64,000 nt of DNA. Origin: Alphaproteobacteria bacterium. GTDB lineage: Bacteria; Pseudomonadota; Alphaproteobacteria; JAAXGF01. Positions 1,660-44,218 of this stretch are shown here, in pieces (position 1 is the first letter of the stretch; each line of letters opens with the position of its first letter). The translations under genes were made by a program, and so were the position numbers. The DNA is taken from the NCBI GenBank assembly GCA_963555825.3, contig CAUVXB020000002.1, forward strand, positions 32,001 to 96,000, in the 5' to 3' direction. The notes under the pieces were generated by a model, which did no database searches, was not told the origin of the DNA, and saw only the letters and a program-made list of their open reading frames with translations.

Positions 1660-1944
1660 ATGTTCACCGTAGTCACCCCCACGACGAGCCTTAGCCTCGA
1701 CGCGCATTTCATAAAGCGCCCGGCGGCGACATTCTTTGTCACGGTCGAGGGCGGCGGCATGGCCGAACACGGGATCCTTGCCGGCGATACCCTGATCGTC
1801 GATCGTTCACGTACACCAGGCACGGGTTCCATCGTCATCGCGGCAATCGAGGGCGAGTTGACCGCCCGTCCCTTCGCCGCCCTCGATGGCGAGGAGGCCC
1901 ATGTCTGGGGCGTCGTTGCCGGTGTGGTGCGGAGCCTGCCATGA
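1660..1944 (+). CDS. umuD: UmuD'-like S24-family protein lacking the N-terminal arm and the catalytic Ser/Lys
   Basis: P.ATFFV.V.G..M...GI..GD.LIVDRS....GSIVIAA.EGELT..VWGVV; ATGA overlap with umuC. Confidence 0.8.
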   Translation: MFTVVTPTTSLSLDAHFIKRPAATFFVTVEGGGMAEHGILAGDTLIVDRSRTPGTGSIVIAAIEGELTARPFAALDGEEAHVWGVVAGVVRSLP

Positions 1945-3209
1945 GCATCTACGGACTGGCCGATTGTAATAACTTCTTCGTTTCCTGCGAGCGAGTCTTC
2001 CGGCCAGCCCTCGAAGGCCGTCCCGCCGTCGTCCTGTCGTCGAACGACGGCTGCATCGTCGCGCGCAGCGACGAGGCCAAGGCGCTCGGCGTCAAGATGG
2101 CGCAGCCGGCGTTCCAGGCGAAAGACCTCATCGAGCGGCACAGCATTGCCGTCATCAGCGGCAACCTCCAGTTCTATACCGACATGAGCAACCGGGTGAT
2201 GCAGGTCTTCGGGGAACTCGTCCCGGCGGTGGAGAAATACTCGATCGACGAATGTTTTCTCGATCTCACGGGAATGCCGCAAGAGCTCACTGCATTCTGC
2301 CAGGGACTGAAACATACCGTGCGGCAATGGACCGGGCTGCCGATCAGCATCGGCATCGCCGAGACCAAGACCCTTGCCAAGATAGCCAACCGTCTCGCGA
2401 AGACCTCCGCCAAAACGAACGGTGTTCTCGATCTCACCGGTGAGCGCTGGCGCGACAGGGCGCTGGCGTCAACTGAAGTCGGCAATATCTGGGGGATCGG
2501 CAGGCAGTACGCTCAAAAACTCAACCGCAACGGCATCATGACGGCCCTCGATCTGACGAGCCGTCCCGATGGTTGGATCCGCAAGGAGATGGGCGTCGGC
2601 GGGCTGAAGACGGTGCGGGAATTGCGCGGCGAGGACTGTATAGGCTTCGATGACATGCCCCAGCCCAAGCAGACGACGATGGTCTCGCGGTCCTTCGGCA
2701 CGGAAGTGCGCGACTACGACGAGTTGGCCAATGCGATCACCATGTTCGCGACCGATGCAGCGCGCTCCCTTCGCAGGGCCAATCTCGTCTCAACCACGGT
2801 GAGCGTGTTCATCGAGACCAACCGTTACGGCAAGAGCCTGCACTATGCTCCGTCCCGCTCAGAGGCGCTTTCGCCAGCGACCAATAACACGAGGCATGTC
2901 GTGCGAGCCGCGCTGGCCGCTCTGAAGCACATCTATCGCGAGGGGGTGGCGTACAAGCGCGCCGGGGTGATGCTGCTCGACCTCGTCGAGGCCGGGCAAG
3001 CACAAGTTTCTCTATTCGATACGCAGGATCCAAGGGACGACAAGCTGATCGAGGCATTCGACGCCATCAACGACCGGCTGGGGCCGGGAGCGATCCAATT
3101 CGGCCCCGCGGCGCAGGCCGCGGCCTGGCGATCGAGCAGCGCCTTCCGCTCGCCCAGCTACACAACCCGTTGGGAAGACATCCCGAGAGCTATGTCCGAA
3201 AGTTGGTGA
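1941..3209 (+). CDS. umuC: Y-family DNA polymerase V catalytic subunit, copy 1
   Basis: DCNNFFVSCERVFRP, LSSNDGC, YSIDECF, C-terminal SP.YTTRW; last codons altered by an IS256 end. Confidence 0.95.
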   Translation: MSIYGLADCNNFFVSCERVFRPALEGRPAVVLSSNDGCIVARSDEAKALGVKMAQPAFQAKDLIERHSIAVISGNLQFYTDMSNRVMQVFGELVPAVEKYSIDECFLDLTGMPQELTAFCQGLKHTVRQWTGLPISIGIAETKTLAKIANRLAKTSAKTNGVLDLTGERWRDRALASTEVGNIWGIGRQYAQKLNRNGIMTALDLTSRPDGWIRKEMGVGGLKTVRELRGEDCIGFDDMPQPKQTTMVSRSFGTEVRDYDELANAITMFATDAARSLRRANLVSTTVSVFIETNRYGKSLHYAPSRSEALSPATNNTRHVVRAALAALKHIYREGVAYKRAGVMLLDLVEAGQAQVSLFDTQDPRDDKLIEAFDAINDRLGPGAIQFGPAAQAAAWRSSSAFRSPSYTTRWEDIPRAMSESW

Positions 3210-5747: not shown

Positions 5748-7112
5748 CTATGACGCTGCAGCGCGCCTGTAAATCACGATCCTTCGAACTACTTCCAAAT
5801 TCATCACCAATGCAACGACACCCAGGGTGAATAATGGCTGGTTCAGGATGGCGCCAAGGAAGATGACGAACACCCGAACGTCACGGCCCAGCCGGACGTA
5901 TGAGACGCCTCGCAACCTTTGAGCCATCAGCCCGTCGTACTTGTCCGCCGTATAGCTGTTTAGGAACGACCCGACAATTGCCGCGAACCCCAGCACGACG
6001 GACAGGGTTGTGCCGGTCGCAGCGAATTCGTGCCACATCAGGCCGAACAACAGGGCGGCGTCGGCATACCGATCGAGGACCGCGTCGAACCAGCCGCCGA
6101 ACTCGCTCTGGGAATGCTTCAGCCGGGCGATCTCGCCATCGCAACCGTCGATGATCGAGGCCAGTTGCGCCAGCACGCCACCGGCGGCCAGGGCGGGATA
6201 GCCGCCCAATGCCATCAACCCCGCAGCACTGCAGGACAGTATCCACGAGGCCAGGGAGACTTGGTTGGGCGTCACCGCCGTGCGTACCAGATAGCGGCTG
6301 AGCCATCGGGAAACCGGGCGGTTGAGATGGCGCGACACCGGCCCGTCCCGGGTCTTGCGGCCCTGGTCGCGCATCAGACGTCGTTCGGCTTCACGCAAGG
6401 CGTCGGGCGTGTCCACGTCGAGCCACCGCATTCCAGTCACGTCGACGGTTCTCGCCCGCCCCTCGCGCGCCAGTTCCCTGAGCCCGTCGGAAAGCCCGTG
6501 CTTGTTGCTTGCCGCCGCGCGCTCGAGACCTTCGAACAGGCCGGTCGTGCAAAGCATGACCCCGGTGTCGCCGGCATCCCAATCGTCGAGGTTCTTCTCG
6601 ATTTCCTTAATGCGTCCGTCGTCGATCTTGACCCGGGTGACATCGTCGAGATCGAAGATGGCGCCTTTGTCGCGGTCCACGGCGAGGCGAAGTTCGCCCA
6701 CTGCCGGCGGGTCGTTGGCCAGGGCCCGTGCGATTGCGGGATTGAACAGATGATCGATCATGACCAGGAAGAAGGGCGCCTCGCCGGTGCGACCCTTGGC
6801 CGCCAGGGCGCTGGCGCCGTTGCCCTGCTCCCAGCCCTCGGCTTCGATGAAGTCGATCGTGACGCCGCGACGCCGGGCGATGCCGGAAAAATGCTCCTTC
6901 ACTGATTCGGCCTCATGACCCAGAGTGACGAGGACCCGCCGGACGCCTGCGTCCAGCAACGTGCAGACGACCCGTTCGGCGAGGCTCAGTCCGAGCACCT
7001 TGATCAGGGGCTTCGGTGTCGTGGTTTGCGGAAATAGGCGTGACCCAAGTCCAGCAGCAAGCATCACCGCAACCTCCGGGGTCGCTATCTGGTCGTTAGT
7101 TCCCACCATCAC
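5748..7112 (-). CDS. Bifunctional NTP-transferase / CDP-alcohol phosphotransferase (IPCT/DIPPS-like)
   Basis: N-terminal LAAGLGSRL..PKPL; C-terminal DGPVSRHLNR, TPNQVS, DGCDGEIAR..G.WFD.VLDR motif with TM helices. Confidence 0.85.
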   Translation of the reverse strand: MMVGTNDQIATPEVAVMLAAGLGSRLFPQTTTPKPLIKVLGLSLAERVVCTLLDAGVRRVLVTLGHEAESVKEHFSGIARRRGVTIDFIEAEGWEQGNGASALAAKGRTGEAPFFLVMIDHLFNPAIARALANDPPAVGELRLAVDRDKGAIFDLDDVTRVKIDDGRIKEIEKNLDDWDAGDTGVMLCTTGLFEGLERAAASNKHGLSDGLRELAREGRARTVDVTGMRWLDVDTPDALREAERRLMRDQGRKTRDGPVSRHLNRPVSRWLSRYLVRTAVTPNQVSLASWILSCSAAGLMALGGYPALAAGGVLAQLASIIDGCDGEIARLKHSQSEFGGWFDAVLDRYADAALLFGLMWHEFAATGTTLSVVLGFAAIVGSFLNSYTADKYDGLMAQRLRGVSYVRLGRDVRVFVIFLGAILNQPLFTLGVVALVMNLEVVRRIVIYRRAAAS

Positions 7113-15913: not shown

Positions 15914-16115
15914 CCCCACGCTCGCCCGGAGTGCCCTGCTCGACGCAGTAGCGGCGGGGATCGATTCAACCGTCCTTGCACGGTCCAGCCGTTCCGGCCC
16001 CATCCGGTTCCGTCACGCCGCCGAGAGCGAGAGCTTGAGCCAAAGGCGGGCGAGGGCGGATGCCGAAGAGGGTGTCCCCGCCCGGTTCCGCATTCACGCA
16101 ATCCCGGAGACCGAC

Positions 16116-18656
16116 ATGCACGACCCCGAACGCGATATCCGCGACATCCCGCTGTCCCAACTCGAACTCTCGCCCGACAATGTGCGCAAGACGCCGGCCG
16201 ATGCTTCGGCCTTCACCGAGCTCAAGGCCTCGATCGCCGCCCACGGGCTGCTCGAGAACCTGATTGCCCGCGCCATGGAACCCGGCACGGATGGTGCCGC
16301 GCGCTACGCGGTGATCGCCGGCGGACGGCGGCTGGCCGCGATGCAGGCGCTGGCCGCCGAGGGCGCGCTGGACGAGGACCACCCCGTGCCCTGCCGCATG
16401 ATCGGAAATATCGTGGCGGCCGAAGAAGTTTCGCTGGCCGAGAACAGTGTCCGCGCCGCCATGCACCCGGCCGATCAGGTCGAGGCGTTCCGCCGCCTGG
16501 CCGATGCGGGCAGCACGGCGGCCGCCATCGCGGCGCGCTTCGGGGTCTCGGAGCGCACCGTGGAGAAGCGGCTGCGGCTCGGCAACGCCGCACCGGTGCT
16601 GCTCGAGGCCTACCGCGCGGGCGAAATCGATCTGGACACATTGATGGCCTTCGCCGTCACCACGGATCATGCGCGCCAGAGCGCGGTCTGGGCGGCGGTG
16701 AGCCAGCAGGGCTACCGGCCCGGCGCTTGGCAGATCAAGCGCCTGCTGACCGAGGACCGGGTTCCGGCCACCTCCGCAATCGTGCGTTTTGTCGGCATCG
16801 AGGCTTACGAGGCGACGGGCGGCAAGATCGACCGCGACCTGTTCGCCGAAGAGGACGAGCGGGGAATCTGGTTCGACGATCCCGATCTCTTGAACAAGCT
16901 CGCCATTGACAGCCTCCAGGTCGCGGCGAGGGAACTGGAGACGCGCTGGAAATGGGCCGAGGCGCGGCTCGACGTGGACTGGAGCGCCACCGCCGCCTTC
17001 GGGCGGGTGCGCCCACAACCGGCCGAGCCGACGGACGGGGAGAAGGCCGAGATCGAACGCTTGCGGACCCGCAACGACGAACTCGCCAACATGGACGACG
17101 ACGGCTGGACCGAAGAATTGGTCGAGGAAGCCGAGTCCAACGAGACGCGGCTCGACGAGATCGAGGCCATGATCGAGGCCCGCGCGGTCTACCGGCGCGA
17201 GGATATCGCCATCGCCGGGTGCATCGCCACCGTCGGCAACGACGGCGAACTCAAACTGATCCAGGGCCTGGTCAGGCCCGAGGACATGCCCGCGCGCGAA
17301 TCCAACGATGCGAACATGGCCGGACAAGACGATACCGGCGACGGGGAGAGCGCCAGTTCCAGCATCGAGGCTCCCACACTTGCGGCTCCCCTCGCTTCGC
17401 TCGGCGATGCGGAAGCCGAGGCGCGCAAGGAAGCGGGCGTCGGCATCGGCCTCGCCGACGACTTGCGGGCCATCCGCACGGCCATCGTCAAGAGCCAGCT
17501 CGCCTGCGACTTCGAGGCGGCCTTCGATCTGCTGCTGTTCCAGCTTGCCCGCGGCGTGTTCACCAACGGCTACCATGACGACGCACTCGACATCAGGGCA
17601 ACCGAGACCCCGGACCGTCCGGCCATGCGGGTCAACGACGATGCTTTCGGCACCGTCAATGTCGGCGAGAAGCACCTCGAGATCGACCGTGCCGCGCAAA
17701 AGCTAGACTGGACCGGCCTGTCCGATGACGAGGCCTTCGCCGAGCTGCGGGCGCTTCCCGAACAAGACAAGCGGACCCTGTTCGCGTCCTGCGTCGCGCG
17801 CACGCTAAAGGGCCAACTGGCGTTCGAACCCAAGGCCCGGGCTGAGGTCGAAGCGACCGTGGCCCGGCTCGACATCGATTTCGCCGCCGCTGTCCGCGGC
17901 AACCGCGATCAGGTCTGGACCGCCGATCTGCTGTGGTCACGGTTGCGCAAGGATCGAATCCTCGCCATCGCCCGCGAAACGCTGGGCGAGACCTGGGCGC
18001 AAGCGGAGGCCAAGCAGAAGAAGGCGGACATCGCCAAGGCGATGCAGGACGCATTCGCCCACGGAGACGATGTGCCCGCCGGGGTCACGGCCGAGGGCCG
18101 CGCCTCGGCAATCGCCTGGACGCCGCCGGGCTTCCGCGCCTTCGATACGGGCACCGTCGACGACAGCGGTGCGGCAGATGACGAGAGGAAAGCCGCTTCC
18201 GATCCGCAACCCGCGGCAGCGGATATGCCGTTGGAGGATGCGCCGGAAGATGATGGCGATGACGCCGACGGTGGCGCCGATCCATCGGGCGCCGACAGCG
18301 ACACCTCGCAATCCGGGGAACCGGGGGCCGGTGCGCTGCCGGACAATGATCCTGAGCCCACTCCGGTGGAGGCGACGCGTCGTCCCATGAACGTGAGCGT
18401 TCCTTGCATCGTCGAGAGCAACGATGCTCCCGCCGTGGCCGAACGCCGCGCCACGGCACTCGCCTCGGCCATGAACGTGGATGCAACGGTCCCGGTTGCG
18501 GCGTCCGCGCCGGAAGTGGCCGGCCCGCCCGCCGCCGACACGGGCGACCATGACGTGTCCGTAGAGCGGGAACAGGTCCTGGCCCCGCCGCGCGGCAACG
18601 GCCGCGACAACAAAGCGGAGTTGCTGGAGATACCGGCCTTCCTGCGCCGCGGCTGA
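16116..18656 (+). CDS. Large ParB/Spo0J-like protein of conjugative elements with an acidic linker and FtsZ-like tail
   Basis: NVRKT, ELKASI..HGLLENL, VIAGGRRL.A, SLAEN..R..MHPADQ, HTH; GGAG RBS before ATG 16116. Confidence 0.9.
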   Translation: MHDPERDIRDIPLSQLELSPDNVRKTPADASAFTELKASIAAHGLLENLIARAMEPGTDGAARYAVIAGGRRLAAMQALAAEGALDEDHPVPCRMIGNIVAAEEVSLAENSVRAAMHPADQVEAFRRLADAGSTAAAIAARFGVSERTVEKRLRLGNAAPVLLEAYRAGEIDLDTLMAFAVTTDHARQSAVWAAVSQQGYRPGAWQIKRLLTEDRVPATSAIVRFVGIEAYEATGGKIDRDLFAEEDERGIWFDDPDLLNKLAIDSLQVAARELETRWKWAEARLDVDWSATAAFGRVRPQPAEPTDGEKAEIERLRTRNDELANMDDDGWTEELVEEAESNETRLDEIEAMIEARAVYRREDIAIAGCIATVGNDGELKLIQGLVRPEDMPARESNDANMAGQDDTGDGESASSSIEAPTLAAPLASLGDAEAEARKEAGVGIGLADDLRAIRTAIVKSQLACDFEAAFDLLLFQLARGVFTNGYHDDALDIRATETPDRPAMRVNDDAFGTVNVGEKHLEIDRAAQKLDWTGLSDDEAFAELRALPEQDKRTLFASCVARTLKGQLAFEPKARAEVEATVARLDIDFAAAVRGNRDQVWTADLLWSRLRKDRILAIARETLGETWAQAEAKQKKADIAKAMQDAFAHGDDVPAGVTAEGRASAIAWTPPGFRAFDTGTVDDSGAADDERKAASDPQPAAADMPLEDAPEDDGDDADGGADPSGADSDTSQSGEPGAGALPDNDPEPTPVEATRRPMNVSVPCIVESNDAPAVAERRATALASAMNVDATVPVAASAPEVAGPPAADTGDHDVSVEREQVLAPPRGNGRDNKAELLEIPAFLRRG

Positions 18657-18681: not shown

Positions 18682-18716
18682 ACGCCCCGCCGGCTTCATA
18701 CCGGCGGGGCGTTTCT
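18682..18716 (+). terminator. Intrinsic terminator-like hairpin
   Basis: acgccccgccgg-cttcata-ccggcggggcgt followed by ttc. Confidence 0.6.
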
Positions 18717-18747
18717 AATTCCCGCATCGACAACCAGGAGTTTCCCA

Positions 18748-20538
18748 ATGTCTACCGCACAGAATGCCGTTACGGCCGAGCCCGGCAATGGTTCAGCCAC
18801 CATCCGCGCCCGGGTGGGCGACAGCGCCATCGACAAGGTGACACGGCTGTTTTCGGCCGGCCTTGCCGATATTTTCACCGAGACGCTGCAAAACTCACGC
18901 CGTGGCGGCGCCACGCGCGTTACCGCGACCATCGAGCAGGACGGAGATACTACCCGCGTTACTCTCATCGACGATGGCGCCGGGATCGCCGATCCTGCGG
19001 TCCTGCTGACCTTCGGCGAGAGCGGCTGGAAGGCCGGCATCGCCGAGGCGGAGGACCCCGCCGGGTTCGGGCTTCTCGCTCTCTCGCGCCGGGGCTGCAC
19101 CCTGCGCTGGCGCGTCCCCGGCGGGGACCCAAGCCCTGGCTGCCGCCTGGTGCTGGAGCCTGTTCACTTTCTCGGCCGCGATGCGGCCCATGTCGTCCCG
19201 GACGACAGCGCCCCCTGGCCGCATGGAACCGCGGTCACCTTCGAGGCGTCCGAGGCGCCCCACGCGGTCCGCGCGTTCCTTGAGACCGCCGCGCGGCATT
19301 ATCCCCTGCCGGTGACCATCGACGGCGCGACCGTCGAGCGCCGTGCTTTCCTCGACGGCGCGTTCCATGTGGAACCATGGAAGGGCCTCGTGTTCGGCGT
19401 CTTCAAGGACAGCCATGCGGGCTACCGCGTCCCCGACGTCAACTTCCACGGCCTGACCCTGCCGGTGCGCCTGCCCCAGGTCGACACGGTGGAAGGCGGC
19501 GTCTGGTCGGCGCGCGCCGACATCGACTCGTGCCCCGATCTGGAGCTGGTATTGCCGGCACGGAAGGAAGCGGTGGAGACTCCGTTTCTGGAAGATATGC
19601 GCGAGGCCGCGCGGCTTGCCGTCTACCGCACCATGGCGCAGGCCGATCCGGCTCCGCGGGTTGCCTGGACCGACTGGCACAGGGCGAAAGAGGCCGGGAT
19701 CGAGATGCCCGAGCCGCCCGCCGAACTGCGCCCCTGGCGTCCCGCCATCGCCGACACGGACTATTGGGACGAGCGGTCCGCCTTTACGGCGGTGGGTTCC
19801 TGCGCGCTGGTGATGCAGGCCGACCCCGAGCCGCCCGAGGCCCAGGCGCTCCATCGCGCCCTCGGCCTTGCCGGGCTCCAGGACGGATCGGAACGCACGC
19901 TCAAGCTGTTCGCCCCCGAGCCGCGTTTCGAGGGTTATCCCTGGTACGACGCGCTCGCGCGCGTCACCGGCATCGAGACCCTTGTTACCGTGGATGGCGC
20001 CGTTCGTTCGCTGGATTACTTCACCAACCGGGAGAACGGCGGCGAGCCGGAACGGCCCGAGACCATCGTGATGCACCTGAATGTCCTGCATCCGCCCAAG
20101 TCCCCGCGCCATTGCTTCCGCAAATGCGACACCATCGCCGTTCCCGCCGATCTCGCATTCGCGGGCGAGGCCTGGTCGTCGGTCCATGATGCGCTGCCCC
20201 TGGTGACGGCGGACAGCGATATCGCGCCCGAGGAACTCGCCCGATTGTTGCGCGCCGCATACTTCAGTCCCAGCGACGACGCGGAGGCGGACTCCTGGGA
20301 GACGCAACTCACCCGCTTCGAGGAAACCGCCCTGCATATGTCGCTCAAGCTCATGTGCTCGGTCGAGGAAGCCCGCCAGCGCACCATCGCCGATGCGGTA
20401 TGGCGGGAAATCTTCTGGCTCATGCCGCGCGACCGCACGGTCACCATCGTGGTGCGCGGCGGCAAGGTCAGCGTCGATATCGGACCCGTATGCACGGAAG
20501 CCGCAATCGATGCCGGTAATGTGGAGATGGTCCAATGA
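18748..20538 (+). CDS. GHKL (HSP90/MutL-like) ATPase-domain protein
   Basis: ETLQNSRR, DDGAGI, GESGW, AGFGL Bergerat-fold motifs; CAGGAG RBS. Confidence 0.8.
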   Translation: MSTAQNAVTAEPGNGSATIRARVGDSAIDKVTRLFSAGLADIFTETLQNSRRGGATRVTATIEQDGDTTRVTLIDDGAGIADPAVLLTFGESGWKAGIAEAEDPAGFGLLALSRRGCTLRWRVPGGDPSPGCRLVLEPVHFLGRDAAHVVPDDSAPWPHGTAVTFEASEAPHAVRAFLETAARHYPLPVTIDGATVERRAFLDGAFHVEPWKGLVFGVFKDSHAGYRVPDVNFHGLTLPVRLPQVDTVEGGVWSARADIDSCPDLELVLPARKEAVETPFLEDMREAARLAVYRTMAQADPAPRVAWTDWHRAKEAGIEMPEPPAELRPWRPAIADTDYWDERSAFTAVGSCALVMQADPEPPEAQALHRALGLAGLQDGSERTLKLFAPEPRFEGYPWYDALARVTGIETLVTVDGAVRSLDYFTNRENGGEPERPETIVMHLNVLHPPKSPRHCFRKCDTIAVPADLAFAGEAWSSVHDALPLVTADSDIAPEELARLLRAAYFSPSDDAEADSWETQLTRFEETALHMSLKLMCSVEEARQRTIADAVWREIFWLMPRDRTVTIVVRGGKVSVDIGPVCTEAAIDAGNVEMVQ

Positions 20539-31229: not shown

Positions 31230-31335
31230 ATAGAGAAAGAGGGGGGCTTAGAGAAGTGTGAAGGGGGAAGGGTCGAGAGAGGCCTGACCCCGTTCGCTAA
31301 CCCGATGTCATAACCCGGATCATAGGAGATTGATC

Positions 31336-31774
31336 ATGTTCGGACTGAATAACGCCCAGTTGATCGGACGCCTCGGCGCCGACGCCACCATCAGCCATCT
31401 CACCAACGGCGGCCGTGTCGCCAACGTCTCGATCGCGACCGACGAAAGCTACCTCGACAAAAACTCGGGCGACAAGGTGGACCGCACCGAGTGGCACCGC
31501 ATCGTCACCTTCCAGGACGGCCTGGTGGAGATGATGGAGAAGCACGCGAAGAAGGGCCGCCTGGTCTACGTCTCGGGCAAGCTGCAGACCCGCAAGTGGC
31601 GCAAGGACGGCGAGGACAGCGACCGGTTCTCGACCGAGATCCTGCTGGTCCCCGGCGGCAGGGTCCAATTCTCTCGATAAGCCGAACGGCAACGGCGCGC
31701 CGGCGATGAACGGCGACGCCGTGCCTTCCGCCGAAACCGCCGCGACGGTGGATGACAGCGAAATTCCGTTCTAG
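31336..31774 (+). CDS. ssb: Single-stranded DNA-binding protein (1-bp frameshift near 31672)
   Basis: LIGRLGAD, RTEWHRIV, GKLQTRKW; correcting the frame restores the acidic tail ...VDDSEIPF*. Confidence 0.92.
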
Positions 31775-31847: not shown

Positions 31848-32037
31848 CCGGCGCGTTCGAGCCGCCTCCACAGAGTTCCCAAAGCGTTGACGCGGAGCGG
31901 CCGCGCTGCGCGCTCCGCTCCCGCGGCCCTCACCGGCAAGAGTTCGAGGCGGGCCTGAAGGGGGCGTCCCGCAACAGGCACGAGAGGTTCCCCATGCAAC
32001 CGTTTCACGCCATCGCTCCCCTAAGGAATCGCACCCC

Positions 32038-39635: not shown

Positions 39636-40037
39636 CGTCCATCTCCCCGCTGTTTCCAGAATTCGCAATCAGGCCCGGATTCTGCCATTGGCCCGACAGC
39701 CGGTCAATTCCGCCATTCGACGGCCATTTCAAGTGTGCCGCCCCGTTCCAAGGCAGGGCCAAATTCCCCTTGATCTCCGATCATGCAGTCTATATCCTCT
39801 CGCGGAAACATCAGAGAGAGTATAAGCCTTCTCACACCTCTGCACCATTGGTGCTTTGATCTCGATAAATGTAGTTAACTTTCCCCTGATTTGTAAAGAT
39901 CGCACGGCCATTTCGTTAAACCTCTGTAAAATACAGGAATTCCCAAGGCTGGAATCATGAGATACAACAGTCATATTCCGGCTGTACTCCGGCCAGGTTG
40001 TATCCCTATCCGGCAACGTCGTTACCGGGCTGGCGTC
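39636..40037. promoter_or_regulatory. Putative oriT and divergent promoters
   Basis: AT-richer intergenic region between the accessory gene and the relaxase; nic site not identified. Confidence 0.5.
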
Positions 40038-43000
40038 ATGGTAGCCACTCTGGCCCAGGCCGCATCGGCCGCGTATTACCTGGAGAGCCAGCGCTCCTTT
40101 CGTCATCCCAATGAGTACTACACAGCGGGTGAAGAACCGGATGGCGTCTGGTTCAATCCGAAGGGCCTGTTCGGTCTTGCCGACGGCGGCAAGGTCGACA
40201 GCAGCGACTTCCACCGGCTGTATAACGGCTTCGCACCGAACACCGGAGGCAAGCTCACACAAAACGCGGGCAGCGAGCGGCGCTCGGCGGGTCTCGACAT
40301 GACCTTCAGCGCCGACAAGAGCGTCTCGGCCTTGTGGGCCGTCGCCGATCCGGAACTGCGTTCGGAGATCGAGCGGGCGCATAACGATGCGGCTCGGGTA
40401 GCGCTGGAGGAAACAGTGCTGAGGCATTGCGCCTATACCCGTATCCGTAACCGGGACGGCGAGATCGAGGTGCTGCCCGCCGATATATCAGCGGCGATGT
40501 TCCAGCATGGAACCAGCCGGGACAACGACCCGCAGCTGCATACCCACTGCGTGATCTTCAATGCCGCCCGGACACACCGGGACGGCAAGTACCGGGCGCT
40601 GCATCAACACCCGGTCTACACCTGGATGAAGGCGGCGGGGGCGGTCTACCGCAATACGCTCGCCTGGAGCCTGCAAGAACGCCTCGGCATCCGCATGGAA
40701 CAGTACGGCAAGGATGGAGAGTTCACGCGCATCGCAGGCATACCCGAGGACCTGATCGGACACTGGTCGAAGCGCCGGGCGGCGATTATCGAAGCGGCCC
40801 GGGAGATGGGCTTTACGGTCGAGGGCAACGCGCCGCGGGCAGCGGCGGCGAACAAGATCACACGGGCCGGCAAGTCGCCGGATAACGACCCGGAGATCCG
40901 GCACGCGCGCTGGCGCGGCGAAGCGGACGGCTTTATCGAACGCGAGGCGCTGATCGCCTCGCTTCTTGGGTAAGTCGGAAGAGATTACCCAAGAGCAGAT
41001 CCGGGCTCTAACAGAGGTGCTGGAAGAACTGCCGTACCGTCTTACCCGAGAGGAAGCGGTATTCCGCCTGCCGGATATCGTGGAGCGGGTGGGCAATGCT
41101 ACCGCAGGGCTGTTGAACCATGAGGCGGTAGCAACAAGCATCGAACGTGTGCTTCTAAGCCCGGAGGTCGTGCGCCTGACCCGCCCGCCACGGGCGGCCG
41201 AGGGCCGGGCCGATATGGCGCACACCAGGCTCTATTCAACCCGTCACAACCTCCAAATGGAGCTTGAAGTCCGTGACATGGCGGCCGGAATGGCCGCAGA
41301 TACGGGACATTCCTTGTCCGCCCAGGCAATCGAGAACAAGGTGACGGGGCTTCTGGCGGCGGGTTATCCGTTGAGCGAAGAACAGATCACGGCAATACGG
41401 ACGGTCACGTCTTCCGGGGGCCGGGTCGCCATCATCGAAGGAGCAGCGGGCTCAGGCAAGACCACGACGCTGCGGCCCATCGCCGATCTCTACCGCGAAC
41501 ACGGACAGAGCATCATCGCCACGGCCGTGGCTTGGCGCACCGCCGTGGCGCTGGGTAACGATGTCGATGCGCGGCCGTTCTGCGTCGACAAGCTGCTGCG
41601 CCTTGCCGCGCGGGGCGGTATCGAGATCGATGGAGACACCACCATCATCGTCGACGAGGCGGGGATGCTGTCGACCCGCCAGGCGCATCATATTCTCCAA
41701 CTCTCAGAACGCCATGGGGCGAAGATCGTCTTCGCGGGCGACACGCAGCAGCAGCAACCGGTGGAAGCGGGACCGGGGTTGAGGTTGGTGCGCGACGCTG
41801 TGGGCAGCGTTAGGGTTGACAGAATCCGCCGCCAGAAGGCCGACCTGGAAGATATTCTGGTCCATGTCCATGGGGAGAATCCGGAGGCTGCGCGGCTCCG
41901 TACGGGGATGATGGGGGAGCAGGAACGCACCCGCATTGTTGCTGAATACGAGGCGATGGAGGATAAGCCTGTATTCACACCGTGGCAGGTGGCGGCATCG
42001 GAAGCGCTGCGCGATGGCGACGCGGCATCGGCCATAGCGGCTCACCACGCCGGGCCGGTTCCATATCGGGTACGACGAAGAAAAGACGTTGACCGGTCTG
42101 GTCGATGACTGGGACCGCTACCAGCGGGAACATCCCGACAAATCCAGCGTGGTGCTGGCGCGCACACGAGCCGAAGTGCGGGCGCTGTCGTACCTGATGC
42201 GGGAGCGTCGTTTCGCCGCCCTGCCGGATGGGGAACGGCCCGATACGGACCGGGTGACGGTGATCGTAAGCCGGGGGACGGAAGACGAGCGAACAACCTC
42301 TCCACTGGAGATCGTGCGCGGCGACCGGCTGCGCATTGGCGCCACTCACTGGGAGAAGCAGCTGTTCAACGGCACCGTGGTCACGGTCGACGACTTCAAG
42401 GTTCAAAGAGGCGAGGCCGGTACGGAGCCGGGTGTTCTGATATCGGCGCGCACCGAGGACGGACGAAAGGTCATTTTCCGTCACGATGAGATCCGCGACT
42501 GGTACGGCAATATCCGCCTCGATCACGGCTATGCGCTCACCATCACATCAGCCCAGGGGTTGACCGTGGACCGGACGTTCCTGCTGGCCGATGCACGGCC
42601 GGCACGTGAGACGATCTATCCCGCCGCGACACGCCATCGCGAGGGGCTCGACATCTACGTCAACCGGGCGCCGCTCGTTCTCGATATCGCCGACAGGCGA
42701 GCGGACAACGACCGGGAAATTGCGGTGACGGACACCGAGATCCGGGCGTATCTGGCCGAACGCTGGTCGCGCTCGCAGCCGAAGGAGGCGGCGCTCGACT
42801 ACATGGCCAATGGTATATGGGAGGACCGCCGTGAGAATGTCCGGGAGGACAGAAGCCGATCCTCCGGCGAAACCCAGGGCGGGGCCGGTGATATCCGTGC
42901 CGCAGCCAACGACAACGCGCTGGCCCGCATCGCGCGGGATATCCGGCGTACCGCCTTCGGCTGGCGCCATGCCCAGGCAGTCTCCACCTTCGCCGCTGGC

Positions 43001-44218
43001 CGCGCGGAAATTCTGGCGGCATACGACGATCTGCGCGAGCGCACCCGCACGCAAGGCGATACCGTGGCGCTTGGGCCTGCTTACCAGGAGACGCTCACCC
43101 GTCACTCGGCACTGCTCAAACAGGCCGCGGCCTTCCGCGCCCGGCCGGACGACTTCGCCTCCCTGCTGGCCCAGCGCGGCGGCATCGGGCGCAAGGACCT
43201 CGACGCCTTCGAGGAACTCCATGCCCGCGCACGTCGGCACCGGCGAGCGGCCACGATGCGGCACGTGCATCGGATCAAGCGGGAGGCGGAACAACAGGGG
43301 GTTGAGCCGGAGATGCGGCAGGGAGAAACCGCGTCCGTCACACCAGCCGAGCGCATCCAACCGGTCCGGCCGCGCCACGACCGCACGCAATCCCGGGCTC
43401 ATCCCGAAACGGCGAACACACCACCCGTTGCTGCGGCCGTAAGAGACGCGGAACCCGTAAAGCCGTACTGGTATGCGCCTTACATGGCATTGCGCCAGGA
43501 CTGGAACACCTTCATCGAAGGCGCCCGGCAAGCCGGTATCCTTATATTTTACGCCAAGGGGTATGCGGACATGATCCCGCGCATTCGGGCGCTGGCGGAG
43601 AACCCGGATGTCCCGGCCGTAACACGGGCGCCCATGATGCAGGTTCTGGAGAATCACCAGCGTTACCTCTCGACGCGTAAACATATCGACGATTACCTGG
43701 ACCAGGTGGACCGGCATATAGAAGAACACGACTCCATGGAAAGCCTGGCCGAAGAGCTCGACATGAAAGTGGCCGAGATTTCGGATTATCCTGACTGGCG
43801 CCGGGAGAACGACCACCTGACGACGGCGGGCGAGGCCATCCTCTCGGACATGGAGACCCACGGTCCCCATCTCGATCACATCCTGATCGGCGAGACACGC
43901 ATGAAATGGGCGCTCTTGAACATGAGCCGCGCCATCCGCCGCGACGACGAGGCCATCAGCGAGGAAGCCATCGCGGCCGAAAAGCTGCTTGCCCAACCGG
44001 AAACGTCCGAGGAGCGGGAGCAGCGGGCCGAACTGGAGGCTCTCAAATTCCGTCGGCTCCAGTCGGCTGTGGACGATGCAGCCACACAAGAGGAGCGCGA
44101 GGCGGCGCAAAAGGAATTCGACGACTATGTCGAGCGCCACTCCGGAAAGTACGATTCGCCCAGCGAAGAGGAGCACGAGGGCCGCTCAATATCCAGGAGC
44201 TGGAGCATCCGCCTGTAA
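40038..44218 (+). CDS. MOB-F (TrwC/TraI-like) relaxase-helicase, frameshifts near 40970 and 42045
   Basis: YY...EYY tyrosines, DMTFSADKSVS, FQHGTSRDNDPQLHTH, GAAGSGKT, VDEAG, GDTQQ, HGYALTITSAQGLTVD. Confidence 0.92.

Follow-up and report, generated by a model that had tools for sequence, protein, structure and literature searches.

The 64,000-nucleotide stretch of an alphaproteobacterial genome analysed here (positions 32,001 to 96,000 of contig CAUVXB020000002.1, assembly GCA_963555825.3; hereafter the window) contains a conjugative element; the 3.6-Mb contig into which this is integrated bears ftsZ and ftsA as well. One of its genes codes for a protein that, judged from sequence and structural model, is a ParB-family DNA clamp of the conjugative element, and that ends in LLEIPAFLRRG, a copy of the C-terminal peptide of FtsZ. 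In FtsZ this peptide serves bacterial cell division as its central hub for docking, with FtsA, ZipA, MinC, SlmA, ZapD, ClpX and FzlC as partners. The match between the ParB tail and FtsZ is real and lies far beyond chance. The gene and its parts are as follows (GC3, GC content at third codon positions; pLDDT, predicted local distance difference test score).

16113..18656, + strand: ParB-like gene, 847 aa plus stop; GC3 0.83
16137..16742, + strand: ParB CTP-binding-type N-domain and helix-turn-helix, residues ~9-210 (Pfam, Foldseek, conserved residues)
16743..18143, + strand: folded, mainly helical middle and C-terminal region, residues ~211-677 (AlphaFold2 pLDDT mostly > 85)
18144..18614, + strand: disordered acidic Pro/Ala-rich linker, 157 aa (composition, pLDDT < 50)
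18597..18602, + strand: conserved Asn-Gly dipeptide
18615-18653, + strand: full tail AELLEIPAFLRRG, with the stop codon at 18654-18656
18621..18650, + strand: LLEIPAFLRR, core resembling the FtsZ C-terminal peptide (sequence read, genome scan, 53-tail alignment)
18683..18720, + strand: perfect 11-bp GC-rich hairpin (arms 18683-18693 and 18701-18711) with a 7-nt loop, then TTTCTAATT (read directly)

The ParB-like protein ends in an FtsZ tail peptide

The folded part of the protein closes with a conserved W-x-P-P-G-F anchor (...WTPPGFRAF here), which is followed by 157 residues, then AELLEIPAFLRRG and a TGA stop. The linker consists of 22% D+E, 12% P and 18% A, with 5% F/W/Y/I/L/M and a net charge of -25. 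In an AlphaFold2 model built on an 89-row alignment, pLDDT is mostly > 85 over residues 1-684 and falls below 50 over residues 685-839, except for a weak helix at 773-787; the last seven residues score ~61. A disordered acidic, Pro/Ala-rich linker running into LLEIPAFLRRG had been described in the original prediction, which likened this architecture to that of FtsZ, and sequence, composition and pLDDT bear out both statements.

The host FtsZ itself ends in DDLLDIPAFLRRQTN, its long linker being followed by EDDLLDIPAFLRRQTN. ParB LLEIPAFLRR and host FtsZ LLDIPAFLRR thus differ by one conservative change. When all six frames of the 6.04-Mb genome were scanned for IP.FL[RKH][RKN], six places were found: the host FtsZ, four ParB copies (each LLEIPAFLRRG) and one 55-codon frame that looks spurious. 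The single FtsZ_C match in the genome is the chromosomal ftsZ. The peptide LLEIPAFLRR is identical to the FtsZ tail in two element-bearing genomes (G009 and G010) and in 3 of 29 alphaproteobacterial FtsZ proteins sampled (the host's included). Among these 29 tails, 25 have [DE]IP[AST]FLRR and 11 have LL[DE]IPAFLRR, three of the latter with E, and their consensus reads E-D-D-L-L-[DE]-IPAFLRRQAN. Genome scan, G009/G010 and the 29-tail comparison therefore agree that the peptide is the alphaproteobacterial FtsZ C-terminal peptide, as had been claimed for it.

At the DNA level, the ParB gene and ftsZ agree at 23 of 30 bases over the ten shared codons, with the mismatches, including that of the D/E change, at third codon positions; over the 30 bases just upstream they agree at 11 of 30, which is the random level. 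With identity confined to 10 codons, third-position mismatches and a random flank, we ruled out that the ParB gene recently captured the 3′ end of ftsZ. Because the mismatches fall at third positions and the upstream bases match no better than at random, the likeness is kept at the protein level.

A loose form of the motif falls within the last 25 residues of 20 of 5081 long, high-GC3 open reading frames (ORFs) of the genome (0.4%). Given this background, the HVPAFMQR that stands eight residues from the end of a chromosomal DEAD-box helicase (L283; G000:C1:415230-417140, minus strand, 637-codon frame) may be a chance occurrence.

The tail is conserved while the linker varies

The protein belongs to a large family, with 3976 of 8000 scored candidates at E ≤ 0.001 in one database, and 13,584 clusters (50% identity) at E ≤ 0.001 and 2,404 at E ≤ 1e-30 in a second. 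In a close set of 120 homologues (82-96% identity, 823-1019 aa), 94 end in exactly LLEIPAFLRRG and 118 in [DE][ILVM]PxFL[RHC]R plus one residue. We also collected 80 loci of 52-93% identity, one genome per species, with an 8-sequence alignment as query. These come from metagenome-assembled genomes labelled Alpha- or Gammaproteobacteria, Nitrospinota, Dehalococcoidia or Acidobacteria, often several loci per genome. An ORF of 700-900 aa was present in 65 of the 80, the other 15 being truncated, frameshifted or cut by a contig end, and [DE]x0-1[ILV]PxFL[RH] was found ≤ 4 residues from the stop in 59 of the 65 full-length ORFs. Two more have variant tails (GIPAFLRRS and ALPAFLRAVT) and four end otherwise. 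Across 53 aligned tails P, F and L never vary, while conservation of R is ≥ 90%.

Mean pairwise identity among the close relatives is 0.91 in the fold, 0.72 in the linker and 0.97 in the 10-residue tail; the corresponding values for the broad set are 0.67, 0.36 and 0.66, and linker length ranges from 63 to 213 aa. The conservation check proposed with the original prediction thus gave a clear outcome, namely that the tail is kept while the linker varies in both length and sequence. In a FastTree tree of the fold only, FLR-type tails mark one clade with 99% support (59 of 60 rows), a second clade contains the LPAFLxx-type tails, and proteins lacking a tail are dispersed close to the base; the rows were hand-chosen, and the locus rows had been pre-selected for an intact tail. 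Among 150 representatives of the 50% clustering, 47 carry PxF[LM] ≤ 17 residues from the end and many stop directly after the W-x-P-G-F anchor, many of the 150 being fragments. Copies whose peptide is unchanged use all four alanine codons between them, a contrast that is partly circular, as the copies were picked by exact peptide match.

The linker has conserved elements of its own. N and G of the Asn-Gly dipeptide are each ≥ 90% conserved in the 53 tails; the dipeptide stands 6 residues before LLEIPAFLRR here, and in most relatives its distance to the conserved Pro is 9-11 residues, a few having a longer one. In addition, many relatives have an ADGGPRVIV-like block ~25-30 residues before the peptide. 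At one related locus, L007, a frame of 136 codons (minus strand, near 7053) lies immediately upstream of a ParB homologue and carries HEIPAFLRIEDR 21 residues from its start.

The same peptide recurs on phage proteins

A degenerate pattern standing for [DE]IP[ADE]FLR[RS] was run against the viral contigs of IMG/VR, the same codons in reversed order serving as the control. The FtsZ-like pattern was found in at least 120 viral contigs and the control in 20 (an at least sixfold difference), control matches lying mostly in 16-60-codon frames or being repeats of one sequence. DNA was fetched for 80 matches among those listed, and the counts in the rest of this section refer to matches listed. Of these 80, 24 lie ≤ 8 residues from a stop and 14 lie ≤ 40 residues from the start of the open frame; the remaining matches are internal or run off the fetched piece, many being > 50 residues from a stop. 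The motif is carried by 59 distinct ORFs of ≥ 120 aa, of which 45 were submitted to Pfam, 14 near-duplicates being left out. At E ≤ 1e-5 a family was assigned to 18 of the 45: MT-A70 methyltransferase to nine, a GapR-like DNA-binding domain to four, and DUF2800/PD-(D/E)XK, N6_N4 methylase, Methyltransf_24, DUF5131 and HTH_23 to one each. FtsZ was not among the 18 annotated ORFs.

The positions that the pattern leaves free also resemble FtsZ. D or E is found at -3 in 38 of 64 matches and at -4 in 21 of 64, L at -1 in 20 of 64 (P in 16) and L at -2 in 16 of 64, and P+A make up 30% of the 12 upstream residues. With the ...FLRK form of the pattern there were six matches, two of which end in IPAFLRKQAD (DIPAFLRKQAD and EIPAFLRKQAD). 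We read these ends as a full FtsZ tail of the E. coli type, down to its last four residues, and the two of six matches hint at host tracking. Such a tail is seen as PLDIPAFLRKQAD at the end of a 110-aa phage ORF with no Pfam family (L260:1489-1821, minus strand) and as FEIPAFLRKQAD at the end of an ORF in another contig (L262). A tblastn search of named phage genomes with the 21-residue tail gave no match at E up to 10, the query being too short to inform.

Collectively, these sequences indicate that DNA-acting proteins of mobile elements recurrently carry a module made of a flexible acidic or Pro/Ala-rich stretch and, behind it, a peptide like the FtsZ tail. Because unrelated proteins of unrelated elements carry the peptide, a host partner is a better candidate than an element partner or a secretion system, and the comparison fits a portable host-docking motif better than a ParB-specific partition device. 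The original prediction had raised a ParA-independent segregation device peculiar to this ParB. That idea is weakened by the presence of the same peptide on unrelated phage methyltransferases, GapR-like proteins and nucleases, carriers that have no obvious need for segregation, and segregation is the version of the divisome proposal set out below that we favour least.

A ParB-type clamp without an adjacent ParA

The longest ORF at the locus, 16035..18656 (+), encodes 873 aa from a TTG at 16035 to the TGA stop. Most close homologues have 839-853 aa and cover 97% of this ORF with an N-terminus 26-27 residues shorter; because they begin 26 codons inside it, ATG 16113 is the likely start. Pfam ParB_N matches residues 34-106 with 28.0 bits (cut-off 26.3), and HTH_ParB gives a weak match under its cut-off (E 0.0024). 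No NCBIfam model passed; parB_part, PRTRC_parB and noc matched the N-terminal part, all under their cut-offs. In Foldseek, the first ~210 residues of the model match CTP- or CDP-bound structures of ParB, Noc and KorB (E 4e-8 to 5e-5), the matches 7bnk, 6sdk, 7nfu, 6t1f and 8qa9 covering ~200-210 columns. The N-domain bears N-x-R (N23/R25), a GxRR box (G70-R72-R73) and an ENxxR box (E110-N111-R114), residues which we take to form the CTP pocket; across 89 sequences N23, R25, G70, R72, R73 and N111 are invariant and E110 and R114 are ≥ 90% conserved. Beyond the first ~210 residues Foldseek found no PDB match, and Pfam found no Tubulin or FtsZ_C match in the protein. A family with no assigned function, phrog_7783, aligns to residues 10-666.

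The original prediction had named the gene product a ParB-family protein of a conjugative element with no parA beside its gene. The Pfam and Foldseek matches, together with the secretion and relaxase genes of the window, agree with the former, and every scan for ParA agrees with the latter. All Pfam AAA_31 matches in the genome lie outside the window, the only strong one being the chromosomal parA beside the chromosomal parB; full-length chromosomal ParA gave no tblastn match in the window, and KGGxGK[ST] was absent from long ORFs. Among the 80 related loci, tblastn found one partial ParA-like match, at the edge of its locus. The adjacent ParA ATPase gene of a classical ParABS system is therefore missing here.

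In plasmids, at least 5000 records match the ParB-like protein by tblastn. These include ParB-family genes between ssb/DUF905 and psiB of IncF and IncI1 plasmids, with 27-35% identity, and such leading-region relatives cover up to 81% of the query. By sequence, then, the protein is related to the 'ParB2' of plasmid leading regions. ParB2 of pED208 is translocated to recipients and has no assigned function, according to the accessible part of the source (PMC8406263). A Ruegeria plasmid homologue ends in EALPAFLSGDAA.

Docking on FtsZ-tail readers as a working model

We propose, with somewhat less than even confidence, that an array of the ParB-like protein displays copies of the FtsZ tail and docks on the host proteins that read this tail, so that element DNA is coupled to the divisome or competes with FtsZ. 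Many ParB molecules would load on element DNA and, like an FtsZ filament, would show many copies of the peptide. The array would then dock on host proteins that normally read the FtsZ tail, with FtsA as a candidate and ClpX among other possible readers; FtsA is the FtsZ-tail reader found in this genome, where it is encoded beside ftsZ. Element DNA would in this way be tied to the membrane-bound division machinery, or ParB would compete with FtsZ for its anchors, and either outcome would delay or bias division during transfer or establishment of the element.

The binding partner, the multivalency on DNA and the effect on division are what we infer. Since the likeness extends over the entire conserved peptide of FtsZ together with its flank, one or more proteins that read the FtsZ tail would be the simplest choice of partner. 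Loading of many ParB copies is plausible because the modelled N-domain has the ParB/Noc/KorB clamp fold and from what is established for these proteins. The ensemble suggests that mobile DNA plugs into the host's division or turnover machinery. Co-folding of host FtsA (87-row alignment) with the last 45 ParB residues (53-row tail alignment), run without controls, gave scores of 0.21 and 0.00 relative to a mark of 0.32, and carries no weight either way.

A broader version, about which we are more doubtful, is that a portable FtsZ-tail cassette belongs to the mobile elements of Alphaproteobacteria and their neighbours; these would place it on proteins that coat or work on their DNA, where its multivalent copies would capture FtsA and other readers. 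The cassette would comprise a flexible acidic linker and E/D-D-L-L-[DE]-IPxFLRR, and its carriers would be conjugative ParB clamps, phage MT-A70 methyltransferases, GapR-like nucleoid proteins and nucleases. Were this true, invading DNA would act as a division-control device, by nucleoid occlusion through mimicry, or would be tethered to the membrane or mid-cell.

Several observations weigh against divisome docking. After RR, the ParB relatives carry G, VH, VQ or GD, and the Q-A-N of FtsZ is not copied. The Asn-Gly dipeptide and the ADGGPRVIV-like block of the linker have no FtsZ counterpart. Distant family members keep [ILV]PxF[LM] and lack the basic residues (LPAFLTD, LPAFMED etc.), and in 23 of the 150 representatives the last residues are AA or AAE, frequently within LPAFLxxxAA(E), an end that is not FtsZ-like and may be a second C-terminal signal, perhaps for proteolysis. 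In the two enterobacterial leading-region relatives examined, from IncF and IncI1 plasmids, the IPxFL peptide is absent and the protein stops shortly after the W-x-P-G-W/F anchor, with ADAA and ACAA as the respective ends of the pair. In hosts outside the Alphaproteobacteria, the tail does not follow the details of the host FtsZ: a host with FtsZ FDIPAYIRRR has an element whose ParB ends LEIPEFLRRVH, host FtsZ DLDVPTFLRKQVD is paired with ParB DLPEFLRGD, and host FtsZ ELDTPTFLRNKAD with ParB LDIPEFLRRA. The FtsZ tail of the Dehalococcoidia-form host also differs, and the ParB tail there stays of the generic type. Furthermore, that FtsA or another reader binds the peptide is something we infer from sequence. 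Nor is there an evident reason for phage methyltransferases or nucleases to dock on the divisome; a hub of turnover or of the replisome would account for them at least equally well.

Strict host tracking of the tail was not seen in eight host/element pairs, among which the bin assignment of some element-bearing contigs is uncertain. FtsZ tails were read in nine host genomes, the ParB of the ninth being cut by a contig end, and G001, a metagenome-assembled genome labelled Nitrospinota, contributes no FtsZ end because its contig is short. In one Dehalococcoidia-labelled genome (L087), the host FtsZ has two tandem tail-like motifs, IPDFLRIDLPPVLRR, followed by 15 more residues.

Alternative functions of the peptide

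The main rival, in our estimation unlikely, is that the peptide is a recognition or tethering site for ClpX (ClpXP) or ClpA; ParB and the other carriers would then be short-lived, and FtsZ would look alike since its tail is also read by Clp proteases. Timed removal would be sensible for methyltransferases, nucleases and establishment proteins. ssrA-like degrons require a C-terminal Ala-Ala with a free carboxylate, and the AA/AAE ends of the distant representatives and the ADAA and ACAA ends of the enterobacterial relatives recall such signals; the ParB-like protein itself ends in RRG and has no ssrA-type Ala-Ala. The C-terminus of E. coli FtsZ (AKEPDYLDIPAFLRKQAD) is tabulated as a ClpXP degron in the accessible part of one source (PMC8138137), and the accessible part of another states that degradation of Caulobacter FtsZ requires the ClpX N-domain and that this FtsZ is stabilized by a C-terminal tag or a change of its last two residues (PMC4285227). 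The determinant described there is thus the extreme FtsZ end (A-N; PMC4285227), which the RRG end of ParB does not copy. Moreover, a degron need not reproduce the whole of E-D-D-L-L-[DE]-IPAFLRR with its acidic flank, and on phage proteins the motif is often internal or N-terminal, as in the 14 of 80 listed matches near a frame start. We give still less credence to docking on a DNA hub other than an FtsZ partner (replisome, clamp, nucleoid factor or a new protein), with the likeness to FtsZ arising from convergence on a similar groove. The annotated carriers do nearly all act on DNA (ParB, MT-A70, N6_N4 methylase, GapR-like, PD-(D/E)XK and HTH proteins), no capsid, tail or terminase protein is among the 18 annotated carriers in the matches listed, and the linker elements upstream of the peptide are foreign to FtsZ. 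The motif is placed N-terminally, internally or C-terminally behind flexible linkers in these matches, as clamp-binding motifs are. However, the peptide is unlike the clamp-binding consensus QL[SD]LF, the FtsZ match spans 10-12 positions including flanks that the pattern leaves unfixed, and two phage ORFs reproduce the FtsZ end as far as QAD.

Far less probable is that the acidic linker and hydrophobic end form a signal for export of ParB into the recipient through a Dot/Icm-type type IV secretion system (T4SS). Dot/Icm signals are C-terminal and loose; they contain acidic stretches and, close to the end, a hydrophobic residue, and the composition of linker and tail is compatible with this. 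Among the genes of the element are those for a coupling protein and for proteins resembling DotH/IcmK and DotI/IcmL, and the related ParB2 of pED208 is, as far as the accessible part of the source goes, a translocated protein (PMC8406263). Against this, the peptide is nearly invariant whereas secretion signals are usually loose, the ParB2-type relatives of IncF and IncI1 plasmids have no motif (pED208 ParB2 itself lying outside this comparison), and phage proteins carry the motif at N-terminal and internal positions too. With unrelated phage proteins bearing the peptide, we down-weighted both an element-specific partner and a T4SS signal as the principal explanation. A chance resemblance without function is hardly credible. 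Short motifs do recur, and even the reversed control had 20 viral matches, but the only real matches genome-wide are FtsZ and the ParB copies, and the motif is kept across a clade of 52-96% identity in which the adjoining linker is scrambled.

The element and the genes around parB

The other genes recognized in the window are listed below.

Upstream of the ParB-like gene: umuD/umuC (Pfam)
1941-3209: second umuC copy
18748..20538, + strand: GHKL-type ATPase, 596 aa, with an Hsp90/MutL/MORC-like fold (neighbour counts, Pfam, AlphaFold2, Foldseek)
31330-31680: ssb, 12.7 kb downstream of the ParB-like gene
39957-44218: TrwC/TraA-type relaxase in three overlapping ORFs, with the TrwC domain at 39957-40973
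40966-42108 and 42089-44218: relaxase ORFs 2 and 3, with AAA_30 and the TraA C-terminal part respectively
Pfam scan of the window: DUF2958 gene
Pfam scan of the window: AAA_5 protein gene
Pfam scan of the window: DUF2201 metallopeptidase/VWA protein gene
Pfam scan of the window: Strawberry-notch helicase gene
Pfam scan of the window: Toprim/DUF7146 protein gene
Pfam scan of the window: two tyrosine recombinase genes
Pfam scan of the window: coupling protein gene
Pfam scan of the window: Dot/Icm-type secretion genes DotH/IcmK and DotI/IcmL
Pfam scan of the window: several transposase genes, which interrupt the relaxase region

The element may be decaying, or the assembly may contain frameshifts. 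Neither psiB nor psiA was found in the window. The GHKL ATPase gene lies directly downstream of the ParB gene in 66 of the 80 related loci, and at one locus (L012) the ParB frame runs on into it, giving 1480 aa. Its product has a weak Pfam HATPase_c match and a weak profile match to MORC2/MutL (E ~1e-3); its AlphaFold2 model (predicted template-modelling score, pTM, 0.71) matches TRAP1/Hsp90 and MutL in Foldseek with E 2.5e-9 to 1e-7. This ATPase may be the working partner of a ParA-less ParB. PADLOC returned no defence-system match for ParB or for its GHKL neighbour.

Between 15235 and 16112, in the ~880 bp before the ParB start, no ORF passed the GC3 filter, and neither a sigma-70-like promoter match nor a clear palindrome was found; no convincing parS-like palindrome was found in the 1 kb upstream of the gene. 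Just past the gene, the hairpin at 18683-18711 followed by TTTCTAATT looks like a terminator; a terminator scan placed a shorter register at 18693-18710, and its regional site counts were not above those of shuffled sequence.

The genome holds three intact copies of the ParB gene and one frameshifted copy (C2:48128-50660, the copy in the window; C2:720117-722618; C2:2282677-2285178; C1:1842002-1844552), as well as a small fragment at C2:136140. One metagenome-assembled chromosome (OZ253470.1) accounts for 8 of the 80 related loci, and related elements seem to pile up in single genomes.

Comparison with known systems

ParA-less ParB-like proteins of mobile elements (BisD, KorB and ParB2) and division arrest by such elements are already known. 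New here is the occurrence, on many unrelated phage proteins, of the peptide and its flanks in FtsZ-like form. The searchable literature, whose coverage excludes most subscription journals, contains no description of an FtsZ-tail copy on a mobile-element protein, in line with the original prediction that no such system had been described; papers with IPxFLR-type strings mostly concern FtsZ and cell division, apart from one degron review and unrelated matches, and none concerns a mobile-element protein. If docking on FtsZ-tail readers is correct, plasmids, integrative elements and phages would have a new route into host division or Clp-dependent turnover, and a large family of ParA-less conjugative ParB proteins, thousands including the leading-region ParB2, would gain a function. 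If the peptide is a Clp or replisome tether instead, it would still be a new portable host-docking motif of mobile DNA. The phage carriers, methyltransferases and GapR-like proteins among them, offer independent test cases.

It is common for mobile elements to stall the division of their host while they transfer or grow lytically, and in this the proposed role resembles known systems. ParA-Shi-ParB of ICEclc reportedly arrests division, and Kil, DicB and gp0.4 are phage division inhibitors. The inhibitors known so far are folded proteins that target FtsZ, MinC or ZipA, and to our knowledge none has been described as a copy of the FtsZ tail. ParB2 from the gene cluster ssb-parB2-psiB-psiA is homologous over most of the fold and is likewise encoded by a conjugative element, with no adjacent parA, among establishment-type genes (ssb, umuDC, helicase/methylase). 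It differs in that the enterobacterial proteins have no IPxFL peptide, and in that here the GHKL ATPase gene adjoins instead of psiB/psiA. BisD of ICEclc (PMC12409273) and KorB of RK2, both CTP clamps that regulate transcription, share with the present protein the ParB-like clamp of a mobile element, a long linker with an extra C-terminal region, and a use other than ParA-driven partition. BisD differs in its size (550 aa), its folded C-terminal activation domain and the parA-like gene upstream, and the accessible part of that source describes no FtsZ-like peptide for it (PMC12409273).

The closest parallel for the tail is FtsZ itself, where a variable disordered linker also ends in [DE]-I-P-x-F-L-R-R and where the 10-mer is identical in some alphaproteobacteria. 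Here the peptide is carried by a ParB-type clamp and not by a tubulin-like GTPase, the residues after RR differ, and there is an additional upstream NG. For DNA-loaded proteins that address the division machinery the parallels are Noc, whose structures match the N-terminal ParB fold, and SlmA. Noc relies on a membrane helix at its N-terminus, and SlmA on binding to the FtsZ tail, whereas the ParB-like protein shows a copy of that tail and would thus address the readers of FtsZ rather than FtsZ.

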